Below the pieces are notes generated by a model. The model worked only from the letters and a program-made list of their open reading frames with translations, ran no database searches and had not been told where the DNA came from. Shown in pieces: positions 5,471 through 53,821 of a stretch of 64,000 nt of DNA (its first letter is position 1; each line of letters starts with the position of its first letter). Both the position numbers and the translations under genes were made by a program. Source of the stretch: Pristiophorus japonicus. Its lineage: Eukaryota. The DNA lies in contig NC_091995.1 of the NCBI RefSeq assembly GCF_044704955.1, positions 7,316,001 to 7,380,000 on the forward strand. Reading direction: 5' to 3'.

Positions 5471-5954
5471 TTTTTATCACATGTACCCCGATACAGGCAT
5501 TAGGACTGAGCGGGAAATTCACCAGGCTCCTTCAAAGTGACGTAATCAGGTTAAGGTATCCTAATAACACAGTGGGTGGGAAATAAACACACTGGATGGG
5601 AAATCACACATAATCCTGCTCACTTTTTTTGTTTTATTTTCCTCACCAGTTTTCCCCTCTCCATTCCTGACAGCAGCCACACCTTGCTGGCTGCAGTTGC
5701 TGCAATGCAAGGGTTTTATGGTTCTAGTCCACTTAACGCACTGAGCCCATCTCCCTCCTGCTGATCTCAAGCTGAATCAAATATCTACAAAGTAGACTGA
5801 TGCAGCAACTTGAACAATGCATTCCTTCATCAACTTTACAATTAAATGAAATTGAGCCTCAATTAGTGGCAGGGTAAACAGGTCTGATTCCCCTGATAGG
5901 AGCAGGTTAAACAGATCCTATTCCCGGGTAAACAGTAGAAAAGGCAGAGTGATC

Positions 5955-8093
5955 GGAGATACAGAGGGATGGACAATACCAGAGGGATGGGAGATACAGA
6001 GGGATGGGAGATACAGAGGGATGGGAGATACAGAGGAATGGGGGATACAGAGGGACGGGAGATACAGAGGGATGGGAGATGCAGAGGGATGGGAGATACA
6101 GAGGGATGGGAGATACAGAGGGATGGGGGATACAGAGGGATGGGAGATACAGAGGGATGGGAGATACAGAGGGATGGGAGATGCAGAGGGATGGGAGATA
6201 CAGAGGGATGGGAGATACAGAGGGATGGGGGATACAGAGGGACGGGAGATACAGAGGGATGGGAGATGCAGAGGGATGGGAGATACAGAGGGATGGGAGA
6301 TACAGAGGGATGGGGGATACAGAGGGATGGGAGATACAGAGGGATGGGAGATACAGAGGGATGGGAGATACAGAGAGATAGGGGATACAGAGGGATGGGA
6401 GATACAGAGGGATGGGAGATACAGAGGGATGGGGGATACAGAGGGATGGGAGATACAGAGGGATGGGAGATACTGAGGGATGGGAGATATAGAGGGATGG
6501 GAGATACAGAGGGATGGGAGATACAGAGGGACGGGAGATACAGAGGGATGGGAGATACAGAGGGATGGGAGATACTGAGGGATGGGAGATACAGAGGGAT
6601 GGGGGATACAGAGGGATGGGAGATACCAGAGGGATGGGAGATACAGAGGGATGGGGGATACAGAGGGATGGACGATACCAGAGGGATTGGGATACAGAGG
6701 GATGGGGGATACAGAGGGATGGGAGATACAGAGGGATGAGAGATACAGAGGGATGGGAGATACAGAGGGATGGGAGATACAGAGGGATGGGGGATACAGA
6801 GGGATGGGAGATACAGAGGGATGGGAGATACTGAGGGATGGGAGATACAGAGGGATGGGAGATACAGAGGGATGGGAGATACAGAGGGATGGGAGATACT
6901 GAGGGATGGGAGATACAGAGGGATGGGGGATACAGAGGGATGGGAGATACCAGAGGGATGGGAGATACAGAGGGATGGGGGATACAGAGTGATGGACGAT
7001 ACCAGAGGGATGGGGATACAGAGGGATGGGGGATACAGAGGGATGGGAGATACAGAGGGATGGGGGATACAGAGGGATGGAAGATACAGAGGGATGGGAG
7101 ATGCAGAGGGATGGGAGATACAGAGGGATGGGAGATACAGAGGGATGGGGGATACAGAGGGATGGGAGATACAGAGGGATGGGAGATACAGAGGGATGGG
7201 AGATACAGAGAGATAGGGGATACAGAGGGATGGGAGATACAGAGGGATTGGAGATACAGAGGGATGGGGGATACAGAGGGATGGGAGATACAGAGGGATG
7301 GGAGATACTGAGGGATGGGAGATACAGAGGGATGGGAGATACAGAGGGATGGGAGATACAGAGGGACGGGAGATACAGAGGGATGGGAGATACAGAGGGA
7401 TGGGAGATACTGAGGGATGGGAGATACAGAGAGATGGGGGATACAGAGGGATGGGAGATACCAGAGGGATGGGAGATACAGAGGGATGGGGGATACAGAG
7501 GGATGGACGATACCAGAGGGATGGGGATACAGAGGGATGGGGGATACAGAGGGATGGGAGATACAGAGGGATGGGAGATACAGAGGGATGGGAGATACAG
7601 AGGGATGGGAGATACAGAGAGATAGGGGATACAGAGGGATGGGAGATACAGAGGGATGGGAGATACAGAGGGATGGGAGATACAGAGGGATGGGGGATAC
7701 AGAGGGATGGGAGATACAGAGGGATGGGAGATACTGAGGGATGGGAGATACAGAGGGATGGGAGATACCAGAGGGATGGGGATACAGAGGGATGGGGGAT
7801 ACAGAGGGATGGGAGATACAGAGGGATGGGAGATACAGAGGGATGGGGGATACAGAGGGATGGACGATACCAGAGGGATGGGGATACAGAGGGATGGGGG
7901 ATACAGAGGGATGGAAGATACAGAGGGATGGGAGATACTGAGGGATGGGAGATACAGAGGGATGGGAGATACAGAGGGATGGGAGATAGAGAGGGATCGG
8001 AGATACAGAGGGATGGGAGATACAGAGGGATGGGGGATACAGAGGGATGGGAGATAGAGAGGGATGGGAGATACAGAGGGATGGGAGATACAG
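5955..8093. repeat. 17-bp G-rich minisatellite (GGGATGGGAGATACAGA)n, about 125 copies
   Basis: Tandem array read directly. All overlapping ORFs here are repeat translations. Confidence 0.98.
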
Positions 8094-8789
8094 GTCGGTT
8101 TATTCTCTAGAAGTGGGTTGACCTCCCATCCATCACTTTCCAGTTATTTAAAAACAAAATGCAAGAAAAGAAACCTTTTAATTTGTTAAGAGGAAAAGAT
8201 AATGGGAAGGGATCACATGAAAATAATATCAGCAAAAGGTTCAGATATATCAGAAATTACAGGAGCATGAACCAGCCAATCCCTAACGCCTCCAGTGTGG
8301 CATCATTCTACTCACTCATTGCTCTTTGTAAATAGTCAACTTTATTTCCAACCTTTAACATCAGTTCCCTTGTTTTGTGAATGGGAGCTATTTCTTGTGG
8401 TGAGGAATGATGTTGGCTGTAAGTAATACACAATAACAACCTCACTGAAAAATCCCGTTTGTGATTTGAGAGTAAATTTATTGAAAATCTGCTTCAGTGC
8501 TCATTAACCGTGGTAGGAATCTGCATTGGGAAATTCCACAACCCCATCCTAGAATTTTTCGGTCTTACAGTGAATGAGGTGGGAAATCTTGGCCCCACTC
8601 TTCAAGTAGATCAGTGTGAAATTACACAGTGACCTAGATTTATACTGAGCTATAATAGAACAGTGACATTACACAGGCTGATTGTGCTAGAATCGGCTCC
8701 ACACAGCAACACCAACATTCAGACTCAGAACGAGAGCTGGTTGAGGAGTAGAAAGAAATGACTTGCATTTATACAGCATTTCTCAATTC

Positions 8790-16491: not shown

Positions 16492-17024
16492 TTACAGACC
16501 CGGATCGGAACCGGAGCAGATTCTCAGCCACTTGTTCTCATCCCAAGTCCCGAAGAAAGGATAAAGTTTCTCCGGGAATTTATTCCCAGTGAAGGTGTGG
16601 AGATGGGACTTGGTGTCCGCGCTGTAAAATGTAACTGTCCCGGACTCGTAACTGAGATAAACTCCCACCTTCCCGGGGATCTGACCGGCAGGGAGAGGGG
16701 ATGGAGGGGAGGAGTTTACATTAAACTGATCATTGTACCGCTCGATGGTCCACAATCCATTCTCCGGGCTCAGTCTGACACATCGCTTCCTCTCCACAGA
16801 CTCTGCGGCGACTCCCAGTCTCCAGTACCGATTCCCCTCCACCTCCACCTCCCAGTAATGTCTCCCCGATGTGAATCCCTCCGATCCCAGCACACAGAGC
16901 CGGGCTGTAAACCTCTTCTCGGTGTCAGGGAGATTCCTCCGGGTCCCGGTCCGTCTCACACTCTTCAGATCCTCAGACACCTCGAGCCATGGATTCGCTG
17001 TTTCCACATCCAGGGTCACAGAGA
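16492..17024 (-). CDS. Terminal exon: B30.2 (PRY-SPRY) domain
   Basis: ctttttctcccag acceptor; VSVTLDVETANPWLEVSED...CVLGSEGFTSGRHYWEVEV...GKVGVYLSYESGTVTFY...LYPFF, then TAA stop. Confidence 0.93.
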
Positions 17025-20000
17025 CTGGGAGAAAAAGCAGAGAATTAGAGAGAGTCACTAGAGGACAGGGGGGAGAGAGTCACTCGGGGTCGACGGGAGG
17101 TCACTCGGGGTCGGGGGGAGAGAGAGTCGCGCGGGATCGCGGCACCGGGGGGGCCGCTCGGGGTCAGGGGGCGCCGCTCGGGGTCGGGGGGGAGTCCCTC
17201 GGGGTCAGGGGGCGCCGCTCGGGGTCGGGGGGGAGTCCCTCGGGGTCAGGGGGCGCCGCTCGGGGTCGGGGGGGAGTCCCTCGGGGTCAGGGGGCGCCGC
17301 TCGGGGTCGGGGGGGAGTCCCTCGGGGTCAGGGGGCGCCGCTCGGGGTCGGGGGGGGGGGGGGGGGAGTCCCTCGGGGTCGGAGGGGGAGCCGCTCGGGG
17401 TCGGGATTGGAAAATACATCTTCTGGCAGAGTTAAATCAGCTGGAGTAAAGCAGCTCTAACAAAATAAATATTTGTTCAGAAGATGTATTCTGATGAGCT
17501 GTTTCAGCAGTGACAGTAAAGTGTCCAGGAACTGTTCTTCAATTTGTATTATAAATATGTGGACAGTTGTATTGAATTGTGTAATGGTTCTGTACTTACC
17601 ATAATCTATATCTACTTCATCATATCCTGCCGAAACAAAAATATTTCACATCTTACACTTCTTGCTGACTGCCAGTTAAAACTATGAGCTGTATCTTCAC
17701 AGACTGAGAATAGGAACAAGGAATCCCCTCACTCAGTCTGCACCATTCTGCTGGGTTACAATCCAACGATTAACAAGACAGATCAAATGTTCTATTCATC
17801 TCAAAATAATCATCCCATTCAATGCAATGAAAAGACTGAGCTGCAGATTGAACACAGAGACTGGAATATTGGGAAGGGTTTACAGTATTTACATCTCATG
17901 TGATCAGCCCACAATTATTACATTCCAACTCTGCACCAATCACAAGTTGGGAGCTGAGAACCTGACAGCTCAACCCAACCATAATGCTGCTGTCACTTTC
18001 ACCTGTTTCTAGCTGGTTTTGGAGCAGATCCCCGTGACAACATGCAGCCTGGACTGACAGTCAAATGGTGGCTGCAGTGAGAGGCCTCTCTCTATTTTTG
18101 AATGGGTCACTGGGGAAGGTTAAGGAAATTAGGTGGGAGGGTCCCGTTCTGCTCAAGATAAGCTGTCTTCTGGAGGTTAACCAATCAGCAAAATTTCTCT
18201 ATCCCCTCCCTCAGTGAAGAAATAAATAAGCAGAGAAGTGTAAAGCGAGAGAACATTTCTGGTATAATTATGAAATACATTTACAGATTTAATTGATGTG
18301 AAACAATGGGGCTGAATTTGTAGGGGCCCCACAAGTTCCAGGTTTAGACATTCACTGCGTAATCGCTGAAACCCACAACTTGCGATCTGTCAAGAATCCT
18401 CGCCAGATCGTACGAATCCAAAAATAAAGGGCCTTTAAGGGCGGAGAGTTGGGCTATTTGCCCAAATTCTGCCCAGCAACTGTCCTTGAAATTCATACGT
18501 CTGGTAAAAGTAGGCACAAGACCTGCTCTAACCAGTGTAGGAGTGTAAAAACTTATTTCATGTGTTTGTGTATTTTCTTTTAAGTGATCCCCATTCACAC
18601 TTATGGGAGTTCGGTACAAGGAAATCCCATCAGTATGAATGGGGAGGGGATTCCCTTCTTTTATTGGTTGGGTAAGCCCATGTGATCTCGAGATATGCAG
18701 GCGTCTACTCATGTGTACCCGGAGAGGCTCAGGAGCGTGAATCTACGAACCACCAGGTAAATTTGCAGATTTTTTGCAGGTCGGAGTCATCTGCTCGTGG
18801 GAAACCTCCAACCACAATTTAGCCCCATTATTGTATTTCACTCAGTATTCTGCCCCCACACGTGAAGTGTAGTTTCCAAGAACAGATAGCAAAGAATAAT
18901 TAAATACTGATAGCAAAAAGGAAAGGACAGTATCTAACACATTGCACCATGGGGTTCCAAAGCTGAAAGGGACAGTATCTGATCCACTGCACTCCCCAGT
19001 CTCAAAGGTGAAAGGACAGTTGGAGTAAGCTAGGCGGCATATGTGGAGAAAAACACCAAAGGAAAGTTGATGGTTCTGTGATTTAACGGTCCAATATTTA
19101 CAGTGTCTGTAAATGCACCAATGGGTTGCAAAAATGAAAGGTCAGTGCCGAACCCAACACTCCACCCAAGCCCAAAGGTGAAAGTTCAATGCCTAACACA
19201 TTGCACCAACCAGCAGGGTGTTGTTCTAACTAAACAAGGTGTGAAGTTCACAGAAATGTAAAATGGTCAAGACCATTGGTGTACGCTTTTCAGGGAAAAT
19301 AAATGGGATTATAGAACTCTATCTTCAAAATTCCTGGATTCCCATGCAATGAAACTAATATTTTTATTCAGTCATTTAATCAGAGCCCTGAAATGATTCT
19401 TAAATTGCTTACCTTCTAAAGTGCAAAACAGCTGTAGTTCTGAAAATCAAGAACACAGGGATGTGTTAGTGTGAGAAATTCTGCAGCTCCTATATGGCTC
19501 AGAGACGTGGACCATATACAGTAGACACCTCAAATCGCTGGAGAAGTACCACCAGCACTGCCTCCGCAAGATTCTGCAAATCCGCTGGGAGAACAGACGA
19601 AACAACGTCAGTGTTATTGATCAGGCCAACATCTCCAGCATCGAAGCACTGACCACACTCGGCCAGCTCCACTGGGCAGGCCACATTGTTCGCATGCCTG
19701 ACATGAGACTCCCAAAGCAAGCGCTCTACTCAGAACTCCTACATGGCAAGCGAGCCCCAGGTGGGCAGAGAAAACGTTTCATGGACACCCTCAAAGCCTC
19801 CTTGGTAAAGTGCAACATCCCCACCGGCACCTCAGAGTCATTGGCCCAGGGCCGCCCTAAGTGGAGGAAGAGGCTCCGGGAGGGCGCTGAGCACCTCGAG
19901 TCTCATCGCCGAGAGCATGCAGAAACCAAACACAGACAGCACAAGAACATAAGAAATAGGAGCAGGATTCGGTCATTTGAGTCCTTCAGCCTGCTCCGCC

Positions 20001-26000: not shown

Positions 26001-29000
26001 TACCCAAGTACCATACCAAGTTTCTCAGATATCTTCACTCTTTCCTCCCTCAGCCCCTGTATCGAGCGATTTCTCATTCTCCGTGATTTCAACCTTCATC
26101 TCAATTCATCATGCTCTCTCTCCTGAATTCACTGCCCTCCTATCCTCCCTTAATCTCCATATAAACTCCCCCATCCATAGCCACCCCCTTGACCTTGCCA
26201 ACTCACGAGGCCTCGCTACTTCTATCATGCCAATCACTGATCAGCCAATCTCTGATCAATTCCCTGTATCCCTCTCCACACACATACCCCTTCCTTCCAT
26301 GTCTGCCCCTGGAAAACATAAGAACGTAAGAAATAGGAACAGGCGGCCATTTGGCCCCTCGAGCCTGCTCTGCCATTCAATATGATCTTGGCTGATCTGA
26401 TCTTGGGCTCAACTCCACTTCCCCGCCCGCTCCCCATAACCCTTGACTCCCTTATTGTGGAACGATCTGACTACCGCCACCTTAAATATATTCAATGACC
26501 CAGCCTCCACAGCTCTCTGGGGCGGAGAATTCCATAGATTTACAACCCTCTGAAAGAAGAAATTCCTCCTCATCTCCATTTTAAATGGGCGACCCCTTAT
26601 TCTGAAACTATATTCCCTAGTTCTAGATTGCCCCACGAGCGGAAACATTTTCTCTGCATCTACCCTGTCAAGTCCCCTCATAATCTTAAGCGTTTCAATA
26701 AGATCACCTCTCATTCTTCTATATTCCAATGAGTATAGGCCCAACGTGCTCAATCTTACTTCATACGACAACCCTTTTATCTCAGGAATCAACCTAGTGA
26801 ATCTTCTCTGAACTGCCTCTAATGTAAGTGTATCCCTCCTTAAATACGGAGACCACAACTGCACGTAGTACTCCAGGTGTGGCTTCACCAACGCCCTGTA
26901 CAATTGTAGCAGGACTTCCCTACTTTTATACTCCACTCCACATGCAATAAAGGCCAATATTCCATTTGCCTTTCTAATTACTTGCTGTACCTGCATGCTA
27001 ACCTTTTGTGTTTCATGTACAAGGACCCCAAGATCCCTCTGTACTGCAGTATTTTGTAATCTCTCTCAGCAAATCTGGCTACATTACACTCAGTTCCTTC
27101 ATCCAAATCATTAATATAGATTGTACATAGTTGAGGCCCCAGCACTGATCCCTGTGGCAACCCACTAGTTACAGTTCGCCAACCTGAAAATAACCCATTT
27201 ATCCCGACTCTCTTTTTTCTGTTAGTTAGCCAATCCTCTATCCATGCTAATATATTGCCCCCAACCCCGTGAACTCTTATCTTGTGCAGTAATCTTTTAT
27301 GTGGCACCTTATAGAAATCCTTCTGGAAATCCAAATACACTACATCTACTGGTTCCTCTTAATCCACTTAAAAACTCTCCCCAAGTCACTTGCAATGGCA
27401 CTTTCAAATTCTCAACAGTCTAGCCTTTGGCCTCCCATTCACCATGACATTCTGCAGCTACCGATCTGCTCAATTACACCCTCACCTCCACTTTTGATGC
27501 CCTAGTCCTCCTTAAAACTGTCATGTATTCAACTGTCATTGTAACCCATGTATAAACTGACCTAAGTTGTACACCGTGAGAACATTGACCACTAGGTGGT
27601 GAACTTGTGGAGACACTCCTAACCTGGACTTTCAGGTATAAAAGGGTAAGCTCCACCCACCTTCATCACTTCAGTGCTGGCTAATAAAGGTTACTGGTCA
27701 CAGAGTGACCTTCTCTCAAGTATGGGCCTCGCGTGCATTTATACTGCATAGTAAGGACATATCATTGGCGACGGGATACTGGGATTTAAACCACGTGAGC
27801 ATGGCCACTAGCAGCACAGAAGAGAGGTACTGTGTTGGTGATGATTGGGACTGATATGTCCTTACTATACAGTATAAATGCAGACGAGGCCCACACTTGA
27901 GAGAAGGTCACTCTGTGACCAGTAACCTTTATTTCCCAGCACTGAAGTGATGAAGGTGGATGGAGCTTCCCCTTTTATACCTGAAAGTCCAGGCTAGGCG
28001 TGTCTCCCACAAGTTCACCCCCTTGTGGTCAATGTTCTCACGGTGTACAACTTAGGCCAGGTTATACATGGGTTACAATGATAGTTGAATACATGACATC
28101 ACCTCCCCCCCAAAGTCTTATTGGGATCACAGATTGAGTCTCTCTGGTGGTTTACGCTCCCTTGTAGAGCACCTGAGTTGGGGCTCCGGTTGTTGAGCGC
28201 TGGCCTGAGTGTCTGCTGTTTGCAGTGCCTCGGGCCTGTCCGGACTGCCCACAGTGACTGGGCTCTCCTCCGCTTGGTTCTGGTGTTCAGTCACCTGTGG
28301 AGGAGTGAACTCTACATCGTGTTCTTCCTCTGCTTCTTCTATGGGGTTGCTGAACCTCCTTTTTGTTTAATCCACGCATTTGTGGCAAATTTGTCCATTG
28401 GTAAGTTTAACTACCAGAATCCTATTCCCTTCTTTGGCAATCACAGTGCCTGCGAGCCATTTGGGCCCTGCAGCGTAGTTGAGGACAAAGACAGGGTCAT
28501 TGACATCAATAAATCGCGCCCTCGCATTCCTGTCATGGTAGTCACATTGTGACTGGCGCCTGCTCTCAACAATTTCTTTCATGGTGGGGTGTATGAGGGA
28601 TAAGCTGGTTTTGAGAGTCCTTTTCATTAGCAGCTCTGTGGGTGGAACCCCTGCGAGCGACTATGGTCGGGATCTATTGGCCAACAGGAGGTGTGATAAG
28701 TGGCTTTGCATGGAACCCCCTTGGATTCTGAGCATCCCCTGTTTGATTATCTGCACTGCTTGTTCCGCCTGGCCATTTGAGGCCGGCTTGAACGGTGCCG
28801 TTCTGACATGGTTGATACCATTTCCTTCCATGAAGTCCTGGAATTCAGTGCTTGTGAAGCACGGACCATTGTTGCTGACCAAGATGTCCGGTAGACCATG
28901 GGCGGCGAACACTCCCCATAGACTTTCTACCGTGGCAATGGATGTGCTTGAACTGAGAATATCACACTCGATGCATTTGGAGTAAGCGTGTACTACAACC

Positions 29001-32000
29001 AAATACACTTTTCCCATGAAAAGACCTGCGTAGTCCACATGGCTGCGTGACCATGGCTTGGCTGGCCAGGATGAGGGGCTAAGGGGTGCTTCCCTGGGCG
29101 CATTGCCCAGCTGGGCACACGTGTTGCACCTGCGAACACAAAGTTCCAGGTCTGCATCTATCCCTGGTCACCAAACGTGTGATCTGGCAATTGCCTTCAT
29201 CGTGACAATGCCTGGGTGCTCATTGTGGAGTTCTCCGATGAACATCTCTCTGCCCATCTGGGGCATGACTACTCGGTTTCCCCATAGTAGGCAATCGGCC
29301 TGAATCGAGAGTTCATCCTTGCACCTGTGAAATGGTTTGAATTCTTCGGGGCATGCCCCGTACGTGGCTGCCCAATCCCCATTCAGGACACATTTCTTGA
29401 CTAAAGATGGTAGCGGGTCTCTATTTGTCCAGACATTGATCTGACGGGCTGTCACGGGTGAGCCTTCGCTTTCGAAAGCTTCAACGGCCATGACGATCTC
29501 AGCACCATGCTCAGTTGCCCCCTCGGTGGTGGCTAGTGGGAGCCTACTGAGTGCATCGGCGCAGTTTTCAGTGCCCGGTCTGTGCCGAATTGTATAGTCA
29601 TAGACGGCTAACGTGAGTGCCCACCTCTGTAAGCGGGCCGATGCATTAGCATTTATGGCCTTGTTGTCGGCCAAAAGGGACGTTAGGGATTTGTGATCTG
29701 TCTCCAGCTCAAATTTCCTGCCAAACAGGTACTGGTGCATTTTCTTTACCGCATATACACATGCGAGCGCTTCCTTTTCTACCATCCCGTAACTCCTTTC
29801 TGCCTGGGACAGACTTCTGGAGGCATAAGCTACACCGTCTGTAACTGACCCTTGGCATTAACATGCTGCAACACATACCCAACCCCATAGGACAACGTAT
29901 CGCACGTTAAAACTAGTTTCTTACATGGGTCATATAGCATTAACAGATTGTTGGAGCATAACAAATTGCGTGCTCTATCAAAAGCCCTTTCCAGGCTGTC
30001 CCCCCAGACCCATTCGCGACCTTTGCGTAGGAGCACGTGTAGCGGCTCTAACAGCGTGCTCAATTTGGGAAGAAAGTTACCAAAATAGTTCAGGAGCCCC
30101 AGGAACGAAAGCAGCTCCGTCGTGTTACGGGGTCTGGGTGCAATCTGGATCGCTTCCGTCTTGAACACAGTAGGTCTGATCCCGTCTGCTGCTACCCTCA
30201 TCCCCAGGAATTCTACCTCTGGAGCTAGGAAGACGCACTTCGCCTTTTTCAGGCGCAGCCCTACCCGGTCCAGTCTGCGTAGCACCTCCTCCAGGTTGTG
30301 GAGGTGTTCTTCAGTATCGCAATGATGTGGGTGTCGTCTTGAAATCGACTTGAGGAGGCTTTCCATATTTCGTTGAAAGATTGCGGCAGCCGAGCGAATC
30401 CCGAACGGACATCTGTTGTACTCAAACAACCCCTTGTGTGTCGTGATGGTGGTCAGCTTCTTTGACTCACTCGCCAGCTCCTGGGTTATGTAAGCTGAGG
30501 TCAGGTCCAATTTTGAAAAAGGTTTGCCACCGGATAGCGTCGCAAAGAGGTCCTCCGCTCTCGGTAGCGGGTACTGGTCTTGGAGTGACACCCAATTGAT
30601 GGTGGCTTTGTAATCGCCACATATCCTGAACGACCCATCCGTCTTGTGTACCGGCACAATCGGGCTCGCCCAGTCACTGAATTCGACTGGCGAGATGATG
30701 CCTTCCCTCAGCAGGCAGTCCAATTCGCCTTCTATCTTTTCACGCATCACGTACGGCATCGCTCTGGTCTTGTGGTGTACTGGCCTGGCGTCCGGGTTAT
30801 GTGAATAACAACCTTGGCCCCCATGAAAGTGCCAATGCCGGGTTGCAATAATGAATCAAATTTGTCCAGGATCTGTGAGCATGATATTCGCTCCACAGAA
30901 GAAATTGCATTGACATCGCCCCATTTCCAGTTCATGTCAGCAAGCCAACTCCTCCCGAGTAGTGCGGGACCATCCCCCGGGACAATCCAGAGTGGTAACC
31001 TGTTCTCCGAATCTTTGTGGGTCACGACTACCGTGGCGCTGCCTAGCACCGGAATGATCTGCTTTGTGTAAGTCCGTAGCTGTGCGTCAATCGGCAATAA
31101 TTTTGGCCTCCTGGCCTTGGACGCCCACAACTTGTCGAACTGTTTGATACTCATCAGGGACTGGCTGCCCCCCGTGTCTAGCTCCATTGATACTGGGATG
31201 CCATTGAGATGCACTTTCATCATTATTGGTGGCGTCCTGGTGTATGAACTGTATATGTGCTCCACATGAACTCGCTGAACTTCAGCTTCCAGTGATTTCC
31301 ACCAGTGTTCATTTGGCCTCGTAGGGCTTACTTCGGGCCCGTCCTCCTCGTACATCAACCTGGCTGCAGGCTTCCTGCACATACGCGCCAAGTGATCGCT
31401 TACGTTGCAATTTCTGCAAGTATATTGCTTATACCTGCAAGCTCTGGCTGGGTGTCTGCCTCCACACCTCCAACATGAGCCGTTGTTGGAAACAAAAGAT
31501 CCATTAGCAGTCGATCGTCTCTGTCTCTGTAACTGTCCTTACGCGCGCCATTGACAGGTGTTGATGGCCCCCCTACTCCAAATGCATCGAGTGTGACATT
31601 CTCAATTCAAGCACATCCTCTGCCACGTTAGAAAGACTACAGGCAATGTTTGCCGCCCATGGTCTATCGGACTTCTTGGTCAGCGACAATGGTCCGTGCT
31701 TTACAAGCATTGAAGTCCAGGATTTCATGGCAGGAAATGGTATCAACCATGTCAGAACGGCACCGTTCAAGCCAGCCTCAAACGGCCAGGCACAACAAGC
31801 AGTGCAGATAATCAAACAGGGGATGCTCAGAATCCAAGGGGGTTCCCTACAAAGCCGCTATTCATGCCTCCCATTTTGCCAATAGATCCCGACCACACTC
31901 GCTCACAGGGGTCCCACCCGCAGAGCTGCTAATGAAAAGGACACTCAAAACCAGGTTATCCCTCATACACCCCACCATGAAAGAAATTGTTGAGAGCAGG

Positions 32001-44000: not shown

Positions 44001-47000
44001 GCTTCCTGTCTGCCAACCAATTCTCTATCCACATCAGTACATTACCCCCAATACCATGTGCTTTAATTTTGCACACCAGTCTCTTGTGTGGGACCTTGTC
44101 AAAAGCCTTCTGAAAGTCCAAATACATCACATCCACTGGTTCTCCCTTGTCCACTCTACTAGTTACATCCTCAAAAAATTCTAGAAGATTTGTCAAGCAG
44201 GATTTTCCTTTCATAAATCCATGCTGACTTGGACCGATCCTGTCACTGCTTTCCAAATGTGCTGCTATTTCATCTTTAATAATTGATTCCAACATTTTCC
44301 CCACTACGGATATCAGGCTAACCGGTCTATAATTACCCGTTTTCTCACTCTGTCCTTTCTTAAAAAGTGGCGTTACATTAGCTACCCTCCAGTCCATAGG
44401 AACCGATCCAGAGTCGATAGACTGTTGGAAAATGATCACCAATGCATCCACTATTTCTAGGGCCACTTCCTTAAGTACTCTGGGATACAGACTATCAGGC
44501 CCCAGGGATTTATCGGCCTTCAATCCCATCAATTTCCCGAACACAATTTCCTGACTAATAAGATTTCCTTCGGTTCCTCCTTCTCACTAGACCCTCGGTC
44601 CCCTAGTATTTCCAGAAGGTTATTTGAGTCTTCCTTCGTGAAGACAGAACCAAAGTATTTGTTTAACTGGTCCGCCATTTCTTTGTTCCCCATTATAAAT
44701 TCACCTGAATCTGACTGCAAGGGACCTACGTTTGTTTTCACTAATCTTTTTCTCTTCACATATCTATAGAAGCTTTTGCAGTCGGTTTTTATGTTCCCAG
44801 CAAGCTTCCTCTCATACTCTATTTCCCCCTCCTAATTGAACCCTTTGTCCAACCGTTAGCCCAATCAATATGTAGATTAAAGTCACCCATGATAATTGCT
44901 GTACCTTTATTGCACACATCCCTAATTTCTTGTTTGATACTGTCCCCAACCGCACTACTACTGTTTGGTGGTCTGTACGCAACTCCCACTATCGTTTTCT
45001 GCCCTTTGGTATTCCGTAGCTCCACCCATATCGATTCCACATCGTCCAAGCTAATGTCCTTCCTTACGATTGCATTAATTTCCTCTTTAACCAGCAACGC
45101 CACCCCACCTCCTTTTCCTATCTGTCTATCCTAAATGTAGAATGTTGAATACCCCTGGATGTCGAGTTCCCAGCCTTGGTCACCCTGGAGCCATATCTCC
45201 GTGACGCCAATTACATCATACCCGTTAACTGCTATCTGCGCAGTTAATTCGTCCACCTTATTCCGAATACTCCTCGCATTGAGGCACAGAGTCTCCAGGT
45301 TTGTCTTTTTAACACACTTTTCCCCTTTAGAATTTTGCTATAATGTGGCCCTTTTTGCTTTTATCCATGCCTTTATTACCTCAAGACTGGTCTATTCTAA
45401 TGATCCCCTGTGACCCTCCAGTCTTCCTCCTTCCATAAACTTGAACTCATCCAAAACTCTGCTGCCCATACCCTAACTCACACGAACTCTCGTTCATCCA
45501 TCACCCTGTCCTGGTTCCCGGTCCAGCCATACATTGATTTTAAAATTCTCATCTTTGTTTTCAAATACCTCCGTGGCCTCGCCCCTCCCTATCTCCGAAA
45601 CCTCCTCCAGCCCTATAACCCTTTGAGATCTCTGTGCTCCTCCGCCTCTTGGGCATTCCCAACTTTAATCGCTCCACCACTGGTGACCATGTCTTCCGCT
45701 ATCTGGGCCCTAGGCTCTGGAATTACCTCCCTGAGCCTCTCCTTCTTTAAGACACTCCTTAAAACCTATCTCTTCACCTGTCCTAATATCTCCGTATGTG
45801 GCTTGTTGTCAAATTCAGTTTCATAACATTCCTGCGAAGCGCCTCGGGATGTTTTACTAAATTAAAAGGTGCTATATAAATACAAGTTGTTGTTGTTTCA
45901 ATGAGAGAAGAGGGGATCACAGCCAGACTGCATTACAGTATCTGTCCACAAAGTAGATGTGTCAGCAGGTTATAGATTAGCTGTGTGTGTATGTGATTAT
46001 AATGTAGCACGATTACAATAGCATCCAGTACAGGGCTGGGGCGGGGGACAAATTTACCAGCAACCTTTCCTGAGACTCTGATAATGTAAAGTGGTGTCAT
46101 TACTTAACCACTGAAAGCTGAAAATAATGGGCGTGTTAGCTGCCAAAATAAAAAATGTGTAACTCTCCTGAGTTCAAATGGTTCATGATTCAGTGAGTTC
46201 AGCTTTGCCAGGGAGTGGTAAATATTGGTCCGGGCACCTTCATTGATCACCATCCAGTTCCCCAAACAGAAGGGCAGTTTGATTGCGGATAAGGATGGGC
46301 AGTAAAGGGCTCAAAGTCCAACAGTCTTATTCCTCCATTCAGGCTTCGACAGATTACCCTCACTGAAATGTAATTAATTTATATCCTTCCCACTCCCTGT
46401 TTAAACATTTCCCAATGCTGACCAACAGTTCAAGTTAACAATTGTTCTTCATTGCAATCTGGGCAAGGTCCCTTTTACATTATACAAATTGCATTTATTT
46501 AGTCAGGTACCTTTGTACTCAGCTTTTCTTTTCCTATACTAAAGCCAGTTATATCGTGCCAAGTCAATAATGCTTCTTTCTTCATTGGAATTACAGCATA
46601 TTGATTAAGAAATCATTCCTGAACACACTGAAATAAACTTCTCCTTTTTCACCAATTGTTTTCATATCTCGGTCTTATTTTTGGATGATTACAGTCTCCT
46701 ACAATTATAATTCTATTGTTATTATACATCTGCAATGTGACTACACATTTCAAACTCAATTCACATACATAAATTTAAAGTTTTATAGACACAATAATGT
46801 TCGAACTTAAGAACATAAGAAACAGGAGCAGGAGTAGGCCTTTTGGCCCCTCGAGCCTGCTCCGCCATTTAATAAGATCATGGCTGATCTGATCATAGAC
46901 TCAGCTCCACTTCTCCGCCCACTCCCCATAAACCCTTATCCCCTTGTTGAACTATTATTTGTGCTCCTACCTTTAATCTTTTTATCTTCTTTTCTGTGGA

Positions 47001-50000
47001 CCATTATATCAGCAGCAACAGCCGTAATCACAAGGCCTGCAAACACCCAGAAAATTACCAGCCAGACGTTGACCACATCGACTTTAGGGAAAAACTCATC
47101 TAAGGTAAAAAAAAACAGAATCAGTATCGGATTGTACAACAAACACTGGGTTCTCATTCCAAATATTATTCATAGGTCTTCAGCAATCCTCAGCAGCAAT
47201 CTCTGGTGCTGACTTCCATCCGAATTATATTGGTAAATAACATCAGTGATAACAAAGACTTACATTATTATAAATGTAAAATACTGCGGATGCTTGAAAT
47301 CTGAAACACAAACAGAAAATGCTGTAAATACTCAGCAGGTCAGGTAGCTTCTGTGGAGAGAGAAACATTGTATTAATATAGTGCCTTTAACAAGAGAAAT
47401 ACTTTCCAAGGCACTATATTAACACTATTTCTCTGTTAATGCGTGTGGTGTGAGGACAAATTAGTTAAATGAGGAGAGGTGACCAAAAGCTTTGTCACAT
47501 TTGTGAGTTTTGAGTTTTAAGGAGGATCTGAAAATGAGAAGATGGAGGTGGAGAGGTAGAAGGGTTTGGAGAGGGAATTCCAGAAATGGATCCTAGGTGG
47601 CTGAAGGCACTGCACCCAATGATGGGTCAAAAGGAAAATGGAATGGACAAGAACCAAACCTTACAGACGATAAGATTGATATTAATCCTAAAAGTGCAGT
47701 AAAAACCGTAAAGGGGCCGAAATTGCCCTCAGTGGGAAATTGGGGAGGGCACTTTGAATCAAGTGGAAATTTACCGCCTGGCGGGAGTCAGAGGGAAGAG
47801 CCGGAAAATTTGTCTCTTTAACTCTGACACCGCCTCTCAGCGTTTGAGCGCTGTTTGAGGCGGTACAGGGGCAGGTTTGTGAGGGAGCAGGGCGGTGTCC
47901 ATCAGGGCCGCACTGACCATGTCAGCGCGGTGGTGATGACGTCAGCGCGACGTGGAAGTGCTGTGTTGCAACATTCGTCCCCTTCACTTAAAGGAGAGGG
48001 ACACTGTGAGGCCGATGTGGAGCCCACTGGGCCACCAGGAAGGTGTTCGGCTGGACCAGCGGCGCGGGACCAAAGAGCGGGTGCCGGACTGCCTGTTGGC
48101 AGCTCGGCGAACCAACGGCCGACAATTAAAACAAAATGGCGGCCGCGGCGTTGCGCCCTCCCCTTCATGGGCGGCTGCACCACCCAGCCACTGGCAGTTT
48201 CCCGACTCTTGAAGCTGTCAGTAGCACGAACCTGCGAGGCAAATTCCCCCACGGGGCAGAAAACGAGCCGTCGCTGGTCGGTAAGGGGTCAGCATTCCGG
48301 GCGGGGCGGAAACACGGGGCATGGCAGAAACCCGTTCCCACCGCCCCCGGCTCGGGGACAATTCCCAATGGGTTGGCCCCGCCGACTACCCCCGGGCCGA
48401 AAGGCCTTACTACCCTATTTGAGGCAGTAATGGGTCTTAAAGAGGGCAATTTCCACCCAAAAAGGTATAAACATATGAACTAAGTGGATTGCACAGACTC
48501 TTACACAATAGAACAATGAAATTATATAACTGGAGAATCCTGCAACGCTTGCATATCCTTTATAGGATAATGTAGGATTAATAAACAATCTCCTTGTAAA
48601 AGATCCCCTTGGAATGAGTGACCATAGCACGGTTGTATTTTAAATTCAGATGGAGGGCGAGAATGTTGGATCTCAAACCAGCGTACTAAGCTTAAATAAA
48701 GGAGACTACAAAGCTATGAGGGCAGAGTTGCCTAAAGTGGACTGGGAAAATAGATTAAAATATAGAACGGTTGATGAACAGTGGTGTACATTTAAGGAGA
48801 TATTTCATAACTCTAAAGAAAAATATATTCCAGTGAGGAGGAAAGATTATAAAAGAAAAGATAGCCATCCGTGGCTGACTAAAGAAATAAAGGATGGTAT
48901 CCAATTAAAAACAAGGGCATACAAAGTGACCAAAACTAGTAGGAGGACAGAAGATTGGGAAGCTTTTAAAGCCAGCAAAGAACAACTAAAAAATGATTAA
49001 GAAAGGGAAGATAGACTAAGAAAGTAAACTAGCATGAAATATAAAAACAGATAGCAAGAGTTTCTACAGGTATATAAAAAGGAAAAGAGTGGCTAAAGTA
49101 AATGTTGATCCATTAGAGGACGAGACCGGGGAATTAGTGATGGGGAACATGGAGATGGCAGAAACTCTGAACAAATATTTAGTTAATATCAGTCTTTATG
49201 GTAGAGGACACTAAAAATATCCCAACAGTAGATAGTCAAGGGGCTAGGGGGGAGGAACTTACACAATCACAATCACAAAGGAGGTGGTACTCAGTAAGAT
49301 AAATCCCCTGGACCTGACGGCTTGCATCCTCGGGTCTTAAGAGAAGTAGCGGCAGGGATCGTGGATGCATAGTTTGTAATTTACCAAAATTCCCTGGATT
49401 CTGGGACAGTCCCAGCAGGTTGGAAAACTGTAAATGTAATGCCCCTATTTAAAAAAGGAGGCAAGCAAAAAGCAGGAAACTATAGACCAGTTAGCCTAAC
49501 ATCTGTGGTTGGGAAATGTTGGAGTCCATAATTAAAGAAGCAGGAGCAGGACATTTGGAAAAGCAACATTCAGTCAGGCAGAGTCAGCATGGATTTATGA
49601 AGGGGAAGTCATGTTTCACAAATTTGCTGGAATTCTTTGACGATGTAACGAACAGGGTGCATAAAGGGGAACCAGTGGATGTGGTGTATTTGGATTTCCA
49701 GAAGGCATTTGACAAGGTGCCACATAAAATGTTACTGCACAAGATAAAAGTTCACGGGGTTGGGGGTAATATACTAGCATGGATAGAGGATTGGCTAACT
49801 AACAGAAAACAGAGAGTCGGGATAAATGGTTCATTCTTGGGTTGGCAATCAGTAACTAGTGCCTCAGGGATCAGTGCTGTTTACAACTATTTACAATCTA
49901 TATTAACGACTTGGAAGAAGGGACCGAGTCTAAGGTAGTCAAGTTTGCTGACGATACAAAGATGGGAGGAAAAGCAATGTGTGAGGAGGACACAAAAAAT

Positions 50001-53000
50001 CTGCAAAAGGACATAGACAGGCTAAGTGAGTGGGCAAAAATTTGGCCGATGGAGTATAATGTTGGAAAGTGTGAGGCTATGCACTTTGGCAGAAAAAAAA
50101 TCGAAGAACAAGTTATTATTTAAATGGAGAATAATTGCAAAGTGCCGCAGTACAGCGGGACCTGGGGGTTCTGGTGCATGAAACACAAAAGTTTAGTATG
50201 CAGGTACAGCAAGTGATCAGGGCCAATGGAATCTTGGCCTTTATCGCAAAGGGGATGGAGTATAAAAGCAGGGAAGTCTTGCTACAGCTATATAAGGTAT
50301 TGGTGAGGCCACACCTGGAATATTGCATGCAGTTTTGGTTTCCATATTTACAAAAGGATACACTTGCTTTGAAGGCAATTCAGCGAAGGTTCACAAGGTT
50401 GATTCCGGAGATGAGGGAGTTGGCTTATAATGAAAGGTTGAGTAAGTTGGGCCTCTACTCATTGGAATTCAGCAGAATGAGAGGTGATCTTATCGAAACG
50501 TATAAGATTATGAGGGGGCTTGACAAGGTGGATGCAGAGAGGATGTTTCCACTGATATGGGAGACTAGAACTAGGGGGTATAATCTTAGAATAAGGGGCC
50601 GCCCATTTAAAACTGAGATGAGGAGGAATTTCTTCTCTCAGAGGGTTGTAAATCTAAGGAATTCGCTGCCTCAGAGAGCTGTGGATGCTGGGTCATTGAA
50701 TAAATTTAAGTTTCTTAACCGATAAGGGAATAAGGGGTTATGGAGAGCAGGCAGGGAAGTGGACCCGAGTCCATGATACGATCAGCCATGATCGTATTAA
50801 ATGGTGAAGCAGGCTCGAGGGGCCGTATGGCCTACTCCTGCTCCTATTTCTTATATTTTTATGTTCCTATGTAATTTTCTCTATGAGAACTTCATTACAT
50901 TGTTAAATAATATTAATGATAATAAAGAGTTATATTAATTTAAAAGTAAAATAATGCGGATGCTTAAAATCTGAAATAAAAACAGAAAATGCAGGAAATA
51001 TAAGTGTTCTTGCTCCTAATCTCTATCCAGTGACCACTGTTGGAATATAGACAAGTGGACATTGGGTGAGGTCTGATCAGGCTCAACTGCTGTGCCGCAG
51101 ATAATCCACAAGCTTGTCAACTTCCTAGGTTGAAGTATGAAAAACTGCCCCTTGGACATGTTCCACAGGAGAACCAATGCTCGTAGATCCACACCCAGTC
51201 TGAGTTTGTGCCTTCAGGAGAGGAGAAATAAAGTTCGTTTTTTTTTATGAAATGATTTCTCAGCTCTCACATACCTGATATCTGGATATGGGCCTCTCGT
51301 TGTTTGCGCAAGAACCGGTTTTGTATGAAACATGAAAACTTGTTTACAGAATCACTTGTGACATCAATGTGACTCTGGACAGCAATAAGGCCTTTGGAGT
51401 CCTTTATGAATTCTGTTTCAGACCATTCTGTCATTTCTTGTCCATTCCCATCCTCCCACCGTATCTGTGGTTCAGGATACCATCCATCTGATTTACACAC
51501 AACACGAACTCCTTGTTTGTTGTTTTCCTCCAGGTGAATCCAAGGTCGATGTCCAAAACCTGCAATTAGGATTTAATTAGTAATAAAAAATATTACTCAT
51601 TTTTATTGGTAAATGTGTAATTGCAACAATCTATAATCATTTTTGTCTGTTAAATTGTTAATATAGGATGACCTATTCCTCCATTGAGTGACCCAAGTAT
51701 TAAAATCGGTGGGGTCATTTTAACTTTCGCCAATAGTATAAACAGGCAATATCGGATTGACAGCATGATGTGACCACCATTTCTGTGCCTTCTTTCTCAG
51801 CCAGCAGGGGTCTGCTTGTGAATCTGAATCAGACCGCTTTTCCCGTCTCCAGCATTCTCCATCATTCTAAACTCCTTCATCCCGCCTTCACTCAATCTCT
51901 TCATCAACAACTACTCTGTGGCATCAACAGTTTCTGTTTCTTTAATTTATTTCCCTCTCCACTTGTAGCTTTTTGTTCCATTCCAGATACCAAACACACC
52001 AAGAAAGAGGGCACTGACGTTATATGGCGGAAGGGCCTCAGACAGGCTGAGGCTGAACATTAATTGTCTGACGATGACTCCCATCTAACGACACACCATG
52101 ACCCCATGACCAAACACCAAATCGTAATCTCCCAGTGTTAGCAAAATCAACCCTCCCCCAACCCCATGCTTTCAATCTTATTGTTCCCCAACCCACAGCC
52201 AATTTCCAATTCCTCCCCAATATTCACAAATAGGACTGACTTGGTAGATTCTACTTACTGCTGTCCCACTAGACTAATATCCTCTGACCTTAACTCTTGT
52301 CCAGTCTGTACCCACCTATATCTGTGACTCTTCTGATACCCTCTGCAACTGACGATTTTGCGTTTTCTGCCAATCATTTCCTTTTACCATGCACAGTCCT
52401 TCAAAAGCTCCGTCCCTCACCAGCTATGACTCCAGTCACAGGAAAGTTTCCAGCTTATCTGCATTGACTTCAGTTTTACTCGGGCTCCTTGGTGCCACAC
52501 TCAGCTGAATGCTGCCTTATATCAAGGGTACTCACATCTCACCTGTAGAATTCATGTTGACGACTCCTTCCATCAGTTTACTGATGATTGGAAGTAGGCT
52601 TATAGGGTAGAAACTGGCCAGGTTGGACTTGTCCTGCGTTTTGAGGACAGGACATATCTGGGCAATTTCCCACTTTGTCGACTGTCCACAATCAAATACC
52701 GATAGGAAACAGGCATTGTGGGTCACACAAGTACAGGGATTTCTGGCATCACCTCTTCAAAGTTAGCACCAGTAAGTTGTGGACACACAAAGCACCTTCC
52801 CCCTTTCCAATGGAATTTTGCATTGTTTGCAAAAAGAGGCAGAGAGGACTCAGAAATGCCATACAAGGTCCATGAATACATCCTGTTTTCAGTCGGCCGA
52901 TGATATTACCCTTCTGTACATGCCCTCTGATGACATCTTTCTATACACATGAATAAAAGGTTTCCAGTGGTGACATCATGCCAGTTCATGGGGTTACATA

Positions 53001-53821
53001 TTTGAATGAGCTCACAAGTGAATTGCTGTATAGGCCTGGCGTTGTCTGAACTCAGGAGTATTAGCGCTGTGTTGTCTGAACTATGAAGGATTATGCCTGC
53101 AGTACCGCTATACTTTGGTATCTCTGTATAGTCGAGCAGAGCTTAATATCATCACTGCCTGCCTGTGGCCTGACTACCACTGACTGGATCAAATTCCAGG
53201 CCGAATCCTGGATGAGTGGAGTCCAATTACACCTTCCACTTCCCTGTGTTGTCTGTACACTATTTTAATTGGTATATATTTCCAGTCTGTGCCAAAGATA
53301 GCAGTTTGAATTATTAGCAAAAATCTTGAATTTTCCAGTAAATTGTTTGTAGTTTTAATTTTCAAATAACATGGAGCTTGCTAATTGTCAATCATGATTT
53401 TAAAAATACTGGAACTTGAATATTGTGTCTTATACCCAGCACCCAATAGTAGTTTCCAACTAGGGGGACTAACCTTCAACTTGTAGATCTATCACTGCTT
53501 CCGCGTGGTATGTTTCGGAGTCAATGAAACACGTGTAGTTCCCTTCATCTGATGCTTTTACCTTCTGCAGTTTGAGAGAGGCATTTCCACGGGGAAACTC
53601 CTCTTTAAATAGTTCCGTCCTCCCTTGATAAGCTTTGTCCTGCACATCAGGTCGATCCTGTCCACCGGTGTATAAATGTACTGGCGAAGCCGAGTCTGAT
53701 GTAAACCATCGAATCTCCAGGTTATCCAGCGATATATCTGGTACCAGTTGGCATTCTAATACAATATCTTCACCTACAGTGACTCTGATGGGATCGTCTG
53801 CTACAAGCACACGGAATTTCT
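16492..53821 (-). CDS. Butyrophilin-like type I membrane protein (IgV-IgC-TM-short cytoplasmic linker-B30.2), 6 coding exons, 5' leader exon not found in window
   Basis: Exon lengths 348+285+129+27+27+533 nt, all AG/GT bounded and phase 1, join into one open frame of about 449 aa. The domain order is that of butyrophilins. Linkage across the 27.5-kb intron is inferred. Confidence 0.8.
17075..17405. repeat. GC-rich 41-bp minisatellite (two subunits of about 20 bp sharing ctcggggtc)
   Basis: tcggggtcagggggcgccgctcggggtcgggggggagtccc starts at 17158, 17199, 17240, 17281 and 17322. Confidence 0.92.
17600..17626 (-). CDS. 27-bp cytoplasmic micro-exon (G)YDEVDIDY
   Basis: Minus strand ttttgtttcggcag|gatatgatgaagtagatatagattatg|gtaagt: consensus donor, phase 1-1, no stop. 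Confidence 0.75.
18308..18826. mobile_element. Harbinger-type MITE
   Basis: TIRs ggggctgaatttgtagg ... ccacaatttagcccc; flanks aat / att. Confidence 0.7.
18918..19210. repeat. Highly degenerate tandem repeat of about 45 bp
   Basis: gaaagg(g)acagtatct...tgcac motif recurs 5-6 times. Confidence 0.5.
19413..19439 (-). CDS. 27-bp cytoplasmic micro-exon (E)LQLFCTLE
   Basis: Minus strand ttgattttcag|aactacagctgttttgcactttagaag|gtaagc: strong splice sites, phase 1-1. Confidence 0.75.
20308..21041. mobile_element. Non-autonomous DNA transposon (MITE A)
   Basis: TIR ggcccagacattccgg ... ccggaatttcagggcc; 3-bp flanks aat/att. Confidence 0.75.
21052..21724. mobile_element. Non-autonomous DNA transposon (MITE B), related to MITE A and in opposite orientation
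   Basis: TIR gggccagaaatc ... gatttctgggcc; flanks tat/aat. The body is reverse-complementary to much of MITE A. Confidence 0.75.
24467..24982. mobile_element. Degenerate Harbinger-derived non-autonomous element
   Basis: Reverse complement of 24880-24982 (taatccaggcggaacggtaaactttgcacc) resembles the left end of the Harbinger at 37744 (taatccaggcggatcagtaatttagcacc). The left boundary is uncertain. Confidence 0.5.
26313..27365 (-). mobile_element. CR1 3' portion nested in the L2
   Basis: YLDFQK...[30 protein letters not shown]; aacataagaac tail. Confidence 0.93.
27519..27764 (+). repeat. 5' LTR (246 bp) followed by a primer-binding site
   Basis: tgtcatgtattc...gacatatca, containing tataaaa and aataaa. 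PBS tggcgacgggat at 27766 resembles the complement of the tRNA-Ser(GCU) 3' end. Confidence 0.92.
27852..28098 (-). repeat. 3' LTR of the inner, inverted Gypsy copy
   Basis: Reverse complement of LTR1, adjacent to the reversed polypurine tract tcacctcccccc. Confidence 0.92.
28130..31572 (-). pseudogene. Degenerate Gypsy gag(C-terminus)-protease-RT-RNaseH-integrase
   Basis: ELDTG protease; WASPIVPV/RICGDYK/PFGI RT; EKEALA...ETDHK...RLQRWAL RNaseH; DYAG...SNNGPCFTS...PASNGQAE integrase. Multiple frameshifts. Confidence 0.92.
31573..32698 (+). mobile_element. Integrase 3' part + PPT + 3' LTR (32457-32698) of the outer Gypsy copy
   Basis: SDNGPCFTS...PASNGQAQ; ggggggggaggtga PPT directly before tgtcatgtattc. 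Confidence 0.92.
33982..36616 (+). mobile_element. Putative non-autonomous RTE-type retroposon carrying an expanded CpG minisatellite
   Basis: Interrupts the CR1 RT between the VDIV and FDK motifs. The 3' end gtcatcctcgaccctaacggactgcc resembles the RTE tail gtcttcctcgatttcgagggactgcc at about 24275. No coding capacity. Confidence 0.55.
34345..36225. repeat. 24/25-bp CpG-rich minisatellite (GGAGCGAGGTCGGGGCCCGGGARC)n, about 78 copies
   Basis: Tandem array read directly; about 4 CpG per unit. Confidence 0.97.
38054..40110 (+). pseudogene. Harbinger Myb/SANT-like DNA-binding protein gene, spliced and degenerate
   Basis: FSPTVLDALLEPVESRWNAL...LWREVAQHV...QCHNKFNGL, followed by a second exon ttgcag|VKLAHNMR...LTDEEERVSALM. 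The 3' extent is approximate. Confidence 0.65.
40393..41272 (-). pseudogene. HARBI1-like DDE transposase, internally deleted and frameshifted
   Basis: YLDLSEEQCVRRLHF, ALAFYASGSFQ, IGLLKQRFRCLDRSGGSLQYSP...CCMLHN. Confidence 0.88.
42934..45358 (-). mobile_element. CR1 LINE with an internal deletion (junction about 44850), nested in the L2
   Basis: 291-aa RT segment (YLDFQKAFDKVPH, FADDTKLGG), endonuclease segment, (aaacatag)n tail. Same subfamily as 8980-11780. Confidence 0.95.
46807..46945 (-). mobile_element. CR1 3' tail fragment ending about 25 bp from the TM-exon donor
   Basis: aagaacataagaaacaggagcaggagtaggcc...ctccccataaacccttatcccctt. Confidence 0.85.
46971..47099 (-). CDS. Transmembrane exon (129 bp)
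   Basis: ttttttttaccttag|(D)EFFPKVDVVNVWLVIFWVFAGLVITAVAADIMVHRKEDKKIK|gtagga: hydrophobic span followed by basic stop-transfer residues. Confidence 0.85.
47272..47367 (+). mobile_element. Short repeat resembling a Penelope-like element terminus (also about 50942-51000 on + and 15835-15885 on -)
   Basis: aaaatactgcggatgcttgaaatctgaaa...aacagaaaatgct recurs in the window. The family assignment is from memory. Confidence 0.45.
47368..47690 (-). mobile_element. L2 3' fragment
   Basis: ttgtattaatatagtgcctttaac is the reverse complement of the L2 tail; gagagggaattccaga motif. Confidence 0.55.
47713..48459. mobile_element. GC-rich Harbinger-type MITE
   Basis: TIR gggccgaaattgccctc ... gagggcaatttccaccc. 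Confidence 0.75.
48565..50872 (+). mobile_element. CR1 LINE, 5'-truncated
   Basis: [38 protein letters not shown]; ttcttat tail. Confidence 0.95.
51005..51225 (+). mobile_element. Third copy of the old SINE-like repeat, with an unexpanded 27-bp segment
   Basis: cttgctcctaatctctatccagtgaccactgttggaa...gggtgagg...ccttcaggagaggag; aligns with 4085-4285. Confidence 0.55.
51275..51559 (-). CDS. IgC-type domain exon (285 bp)
   Basis: attgcag|(G)FGHRPWIHLEE...VVCKSDGWYPEPQIRWED...FSCFIQN...HIQIS|gtatgt: B7/BTN-type C..GWYP.P...W...C pattern. Confidence 0.92.
52540..52900 (-). mobile_element. Degenerate LINE RT fragment
   Basis: WEIAQICPVLK..DKSNLASFYPISLLPIISKLMEGVVN. Confidence 0.6.
53474..53821 (-). 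CDS. IgV domain exon (348 bp)
   Basis: ttttaccag|xKFRVLVADDP...VLECQL...IRWF...VHLY...YQGRTELF...GNASLKL...SDEGNYTCF...LQVE|gttagt: BTN/MOG-type V-set signature. Confidence 0.95.

Follow-up and report, generated by a model that had tools for sequence, protein, structure and literature searches.

A butyrophilin gene lies on the minus strand of a 64,000-nucleotide stretch of the Pristiophorus japonicus genome (G000:C19:7316001-7380000, hereafter the window), and its sequence places it as an intact member of an elasmobranch-wide, short-linker butyrophilin clade with a putative T-cell receptor or co-regulatory ligand function. The tyrosine motifs in its juxtamembrane linker probably only resemble signalling motifs and do not amount to a new switch, because they vary between species and one of them lies within a folded domain. 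We consider it probable that this is an ordinary short-linker butyrophilin, in which the tail of the transmembrane (TM) exon and a first micro-exon form a helix, a second micro-exon forms a hinge into the PRY domain, and exon skipping tunes the distance of the B30.2 domain.

An intact butyrophilin gene with two micro-exons

The seven exons of the gene run in the order leader, IgV, IgC, TM, micro-exon 1, micro-exon 2 and B30.2; all join in phase 1 and splice into an open frame of 468 residues with no internal stop. The leader exon (58 nt coding, minus strand) was found by tblastn just outside the window, 1.6 kb past its end, at the equivalent of positions 65573-65630 (locus L023:1573-1630). Next come the IgV exon (53474..53821, minus strand, as for every exon that follows; 348 nt, phase 1), delimited by splice sites and phase and matching Pfam V-set at E=1e-12, and an IgC exon of the butyrophilin-type C2-set (51275..51559; 285 nt, phase 1; Pfam C2-set_3, E=8.8e-24). 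Pfam and named homologues both assign this ectodomain to the B7/BTN type. The TM exon (46971..47099; 129 nt) has HRKEDKKIK as its C-terminal residues, and the encoded protein has a signal peptide and one TM helix, the latter recovered also in the structural proxy described below. Very short in-frame exons separate the TM exon from the exon for the cytoplasmic B30.2 (PRY-SPRY) domain (16492..17024), which extends to the stop codon and is identified by Pfam (PRY, E=1.3e-20; SPRY, E=5.4e-23) and by the fold of the proxy.

Both micro-exons are 27 nt long and phase 1/1, with a pyrimidine tract and CAG acceptor on one side and a GTAAG donor on the other. Micro-exon 1 (19413..19439) encodes ELQLFCTLE, a conserved juxtamembrane segment that is helical in the model, and micro-exon 2 (17600..17626) encodes GYDEVDIDY, a fast-evolving acidic loop that leads into the first PRY strand. 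The spliced linker reads KKIK-ELQLFCTLE-GYDEVDIDY-VSVTLD and is mostly acidic; measured from HRKE up to but excluding VTLD, it is 29 residues long. Its two tyrosines, Tyr1 (codon 17624-17622) and Tyr8 (codon 17603-17601), are spaced seven residues apart, and the Gly of micro-exon 2 is a split codon, partly fixed by the splice junction.

Reading through the TM-exon donor (46936-46970) gives GRSTNNSST and then a stop. A similar read-through ends the Scyliorhinus canicula model P0005, hinting that a tailless isoform generated by intron retention may be conserved. The intron between micro-exon 2 and the B30.2 exon contains GC-rich tandem repeats (17079..17404, unstranded; a 41-bp unit repeated 4.9 times and two short arrays), and three long tandem-repeat arrays elsewhere in the window (815-4013, 5856-8143 and 34070-36433) produce long low-complexity ORFs. 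ORF fragments at 28100-32400 resemble an LTR-retrotransposon pol, those at 40393-41241 and 56193-57339 look like Harbinger-type transposases, and many between 8800 and 63600 are similar to LINE reverse transcriptases.

Both micro-exons are used in a gene pair and across elasmobranchs

A preliminary description of this DNA had proposed the two 27-bp phase-1 exons from their strong splice sites, and a retrocopy, paralogues and homologues all agree with it. The stretch from 46971 to 17024 holds 19 AG..GTRAG candidates measuring 18-42 nt, and the two micro-exons alone have 10 or more pyrimidines among the 14 tract positions. Contig C21 carries a processed retrocopy (L013:677-1337; G000:C21 ~19660176-19660836, minus strand) that covers the 3' part of IgC to B30.2 with small deletions; its joins between IgC, TM, exon 1, exon 2 and B30.2 all fall exactly where predicted. 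Its exon 1 is identical to that of the window gene, and its exon 2 differs by one synonymous change. The retrocopy has its synonymous change and its shortened TM exon in common with the paralogue at C19:8.51-8.54 Mb. It is therefore closer to that paralogue, or to an ancestor of both genes, than to the window copy; as the relic of an mRNA of one of these, it shows the junctions for the gene pair rather than for the window copy itself. The same paralogue is identical to the window gene over 101 nt of the exon-1 region. Paralogues L001 and L004 carry both micro-exons with the same splice sites, and L002 carries exon 2 alone. Paralogue exons and retrocopy junctions rule out a chance splice-site match. 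Judging by the retrocopy, the homologues and the candidate-exon scan, neither the 27.5-kb nor the 1.8-kb intron contains a further heptad exon, as the original reading of the linker had supposed.

We assembled 43 + 21 homologous proteins, 46 of them distinct. The exon-2 register was present in 31 rows, and dropping P0009, P0012 and P0027 as isoform or partial duplicates left 28 non-redundant proteins, some of them fused or low-quality models, which come from 18 species of sharks and rays. Exon 2 directly follows exon 1 in 27 of the 28, and the segment from TM to B30.2 contains no additional unit in any of them. Among the matches listed by these word-based searches, which are weak in this respect, no clade members from chimaeras or bony fish appeared. 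In-frame skipping of a 27-nt exon, previously a prediction, is annotated in four related species: in four of the five clusters looked up, NCBI isoforms (annotation models) form pairs differing by exactly nine residues, with exon 1 skipped in Cetorhinus and Leucoraja and exon 2 in Stegostoma and Scyliorhinus canicula. Overall, domains, retrocopy and homologues bear out the butyrophilin identity of the gene, the use of both micro-exons and the short linker.

The B30.2 exon of the window gene (16700-17040) shares 97% identity with a copy at C19:4114834 but only 93% with its closest butyrophilin paralogue (C19:8543254); the IgV exons of these two genes are 96% identical. B30.2 copies at least 88% alike number 27 on C19, spread over 3.9-4.9, 7.4-8.7 and 9.4-9.8 Mb. 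This pattern suggests conversion or shuffling of B30.2 exons within a TRIM/BTN cluster. Another paralogue (L002, L016-L018; C19:8638837-8692600) has a partial IgV match, a TM exon and an exon 2 reading GYDEVDLDY. Its fetched intron held no exon-1 match, and the fetched stretches, which leave out a 1.2-kb gap, held no IgC match; genomic exon loss or a pseudogene is possible. A decayed, inverted exon-2 copy that has lost its donor GT is present at L003:4093-4194 (C19:8695085-8695223, minus strand), and a TRIM (A33-like) gene (L004:410-2209; C19:7926400-7928200) sits directly downstream of the paralogue with GYGDLKIDY.

The short linker follows a known layout

Sequence comparison identifies the window gene as an orthologue of proteins annotated in NCBI as butyrophilin 1A1-like. 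Elasmobranch entries named 'butyrophilin subfamily 1 member A1-like', which are automatic annotations, include Heterodontus P0008/P0015, Heptranchias P0017, Scyliorhinus canicula XP_038672654.1 and Cetorhinus XP_078422659.1. Nine of the ten that we compared are 72-80.5% identical to the window protein, and the tenth is 64% identical. They have the same domain order and the same two 9-residue linker units, with skip isoforms annotated, and differ from the window gene only at the species level.

The human proteins BTNL3 and BTNL8 (PDB 22kk) share the arrangement IgV-IgC-TM-short linker-B30.2 with the shark gene, a likeness judged by alignment length. The Heptranchias orthologue P0017, 78.5% identical to the window protein and used here as its proxy, aligns in one stretch with BTNL8 (20-446 on 17-441) and with BTNL3 (6-449 on 3-445), with net offsets of 1-2 residues; the short linker is therefore a known layout. 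BTN3A, in contrast, aligns in two stretches and needs ~42 more residues. Human BTN3A1, BTN3A3 and BTN2A1 have the architecture of the shark gene and a B30.2 fold similar at Z ~29, but the shark linker is ~42 residues shorter than that of BTN3A1. The BTN3A1 juxtamembrane region is reported as 68 residues (PMC6017450) and has been modelled as a coiled-coil dimer (PMC10665462), and short 'heptad' exons between TM and B30.2 are a feature of the butyrophilin family, with skipping of such exons reported in macaque BTN3A (PMC6790196).

A sister shark clade with an EWKRI-type exon (P0003, P0038-P0040, P0047 and the C19 locus L012) brings the pre-B30.2 segment of BTN3A1 into register with the shark linker. 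Its members align gap-free to human BTN3A1, placing Tyr1 on Trp, Ile6 on Phe and Tyr8 on Pro. They have an IKEL-type linker start as in exon 1, a 27-nt exon before B30.2 (in L012) and skip variants among their named isoforms. The last linker exon is basic and Trp-bearing in the sister clade, whereas it is acidic and Tyr-bearing in the window clade. At the DNA level exon 2 matches the L012 EWKRI-type exon at 8 of 27 positions, which is chance level, and the two are equivalent in position only.

These comparisons do not support one part of the preliminary description, namely that tyrosine motifs stand here instead of a coiled-coil linker. Exon 1 is well conserved, prolongs the TM helix in the model and corresponds to the initial linker exon in the sister butyrophilins, and the BTNL3/8 linker is about the same length.

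Structural context of the linker

We examined an AlphaFold2 monomer of the proxy, not of the window protein, built from 24 aligned sequences (mean pLDDT 81.6, pTM 0.44). A single helix (residues 239-278) runs from the TM segment through exon 1, with pLDDT below 50 for most of 263-278. Residues 279-286 are coil and D287-Y288 take part in a beta-bridge; the pLDDT of this block is 61. The B30.2 domain superposes on that of BTN3A3 with Z 29.8 and rmsd 1.5 over 182 residues, and the ranges aligned with TRIM21 PRYSPRY crystals begin at proxy residues 286-287 (rmsd 1.1). The conserved hydrophobic residues of exon 1 and its modelled helix, seen in a monomer at pLDDT below 50 over 263-278, bear on the question of a coiled-coil dimer. 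For exon 1 the hydrophobic moment reached 1.44 at the periodicity of a strand against 0.79 at that of a helix, and exon 2 also favoured strand, but segments of 9-11 residues are too short for this measure to decide.

Tyr1 falls in the loop of this model and could be reachable. SH2 domains bind extended peptides, and an ITIM would be expected in an unfolded, accessible tail; the ITIM-like hexamer instead occupies the ordered start of PRY, at the model level and with a block pLDDT of 61. An earlier caveat, that VSV forms the first PRY strand and may be inaccessible, thus holds, with the hexamer lying within the ordered PRY core. The +3 Val of the motif would itself be required for the PRY fold.

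Conservation favours exon 1 over the tyrosines

The spliced sequence contains both patterns first noted in it, the ITIM-like IDYVSV across the junction of exon 2 and B30.2 and YDEV upstream. ITIMs follow the consensus (I/V/L/S)xYxx(I/L/V) and reside in the cytoplasmic part of a receptor. The Nck SH2 consensus is given as pY-D/E-x-V/P, with pYDEV as the nephrin site (PMC8187788), and the YDEV of the window gene fits it.

Conservation of the tyrosines in orthologues, proposed at the outset as a test, gave a divided answer. Each is kept in most clade proteins, Tyr1 in 21 of 28 (otherwise H in three, F in two, L and C) and Tyr8 in 20 of 28 (otherwise C in five, L, R and E), but both occur together in only 15. 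Exact YDEV is found in 7/28 and the Nck consensus in 9/28, and Nck and ITIM patterns coincide in 5/28. Site rates were 1.15 at Tyr1 and 1.38 at Tyr8 against a median of 0.64 (79th and 83rd percentile of 309 columns), and both sites evolve faster than seven of the eight other Tyr-majority columns. Parsimony on the ectodomain tree counted seven changes at Tyr1 and six at Tyr8 (median 4); this tree has long branches from the mis-cut models P0016, P0018 and P0044, and we recomputed rates on IgC-to-B30.2, a tree that B30.2 conversion may distort. The mean rate was 0.45 in exon 1 versus 1.16 in exon 2, and the residues E, L, L and E of exon 1 were invariant in 27/27. Selection is strongest on the TM tail and exon 1 (H-R, I, E-L, L-E-G), not on the tyrosines. 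The Nck site, in particular, is not conserved across orthologues. Tyr8 changes quickly yet is clade-specific: 16 of 18 species have at least one copy bearing it, and it predominates in each of the two paralogue groups, in sharks and in rays. Its replacements are never F, W or H, which is not as expected of a purely structural aromatic residue.

The residues flanking Tyr8 offer an explanation for the ITIM-like match. As TRIM-type controls we used 109 B30.2 starts (74 distinct 9-mers, mostly ray), taken from the 119 present in 116 new proteins. Of these controls, 93/109 have I/L/V at the ITIM -2 position and +3 is the PRY Val, while Tyr is found at the Tyr8 site in 0/109. Controls mostly carry R/Q/H/P/K at that site, which is probably surface-exposed. 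In the clade itself the -2 position is I/L/V in 28/28 proteins, including all eight without Tyr8. Since the PRY scaffold supplies both the -2 and the +3 hydrophobic residues, a single substitution to Tyr completes an ITIM-like motif. Of 152 B30.2 domains scanned, 15 likewise contain the pattern within their fold. Taken at the sequence level, the match would mostly be a by-product of the B30.2 scaffold.

An ordinary butyrophilin linker and its alternatives

In the arrangement that we favour, the TM-exon tail and micro-exon 1 would extend the TM helix by ~17 residues and, as in other butyrophilins, may provide a short dimerisation helix. Micro-exon 2 would be the usual short exon before B30.2: residues one to six may act as an acidic, flexible hinge, and the closing I-D-Y would enter the first PRY strand. 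YDEV would then be one variant of a fast-changing loop to which SH2 domains presumably do not bind, and skipping either 27-nt exon would alter linker length and the distance between B30.2 and the membrane, not a phosphotyrosine signal.

The preliminary description had instead proposed direct phosphotyrosine signalling. Its motif patterns are present, but the tyrosines evolve fast, few proteins combine the two patterns and the hexamer lies in the PRY fold. It is unlikely, we judge, that this elasmobranch-specific clade made its last linker exon a phosphotyrosine cassette, with an Nck site, an ITIM completed by the PRY strand, or both, through which the receptor would signal directly to SH2 proteins, toggled by exon skipping and by Tyr-to-Cys paralogues. 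A narrower version confines the signal to Tyr1, with YDEV as a Src-family phosphosite through which, in one shark sub-lineage, an SH2 adaptor of the Nck type would link the receptor to actin, and with exon-2 skipping as the off state. The fit to the Nck consensus and to nephrin pYDEV (PMC8187788), the coil at residues 279-286 and the exon-2-skipped isoform annotated in Scyliorhinus canicula all suit it, as does YDEV in catsharks, lamniforms and a hexanchiform in addition to the window gene and two paralogues. Weighing against it, the consensus is absent from all six batoid proteins (0/6), Tyr1 gives way to H, F, L or C, D2, E3 and V4 are themselves fast sites, and the motif is a single site rather than a tandem array; we regard such docking as unlikely. 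Motifs of the form G-Y-x-x-hydrophobic are sorting signals of the type bound by adaptor-protein mu chains, and Tyr1 might accordingly set surface level and endocytosis, with exon skipping tuning trafficking. GYxx[VLIMF] is present in 15/28 proteins, wider than the Nck consensus, in a modelled coil ~20 residues from the membrane. However, position 4 is hydrophobic in all six counted of the seven proteins that lack Tyr1, and hence independently of the tyrosine, and the Gly is partly dictated by the splice junction beside a fast-evolving Tyr1, which leaves a sorting role quite improbable.

The remaining possibility makes Tyr8 a working ITIM: the first PRY strand would fray or be displaced, become phosphorylated and recruit SHP-1/2, and the Tyr-to-Cys paralogues would act as non-inhibitory partners, which are familiar from paired receptor families. 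Repeated Y-to-C losses on separate branches agree with this, as do the breadth of the pattern (20/28 proteins, 16/18 species) and the lack of Tyr8 in every control. The butyrophilin relative BG1 of chicken offers a precedent, a functional ITIM reported to be conditional on splicing (PMC4046983), although its ITIM lies in read-through intron sequence of a long heptad tail and not at the B30.2 start, and BG proteins have a single Ig domain. The +1 and +3 Val sit at the start of the PRY core, the residues around Tyr8 are scaffold-derived and the site is at the 83rd rate percentile; moreover P0047, a further clade-like domain, keeps both tyrosines with Arg at -2. A working ITIM therefore strikes us as very improbable.

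A literature search that did not extend to most subscription journals listed no work on this shark clade or its motifs and no functional study of the elasmobranch 1A1-like proteins. The well-supported gene model places a BTNL3/8-like compact layout in cartilaginous fish, in a family for which we found almost no literature. If its tyrosines were functional, a butyrophilin with a B30.2 domain would be signalling by way of phosphotyrosine, and annotations of its relatives would already contain the splice switch.
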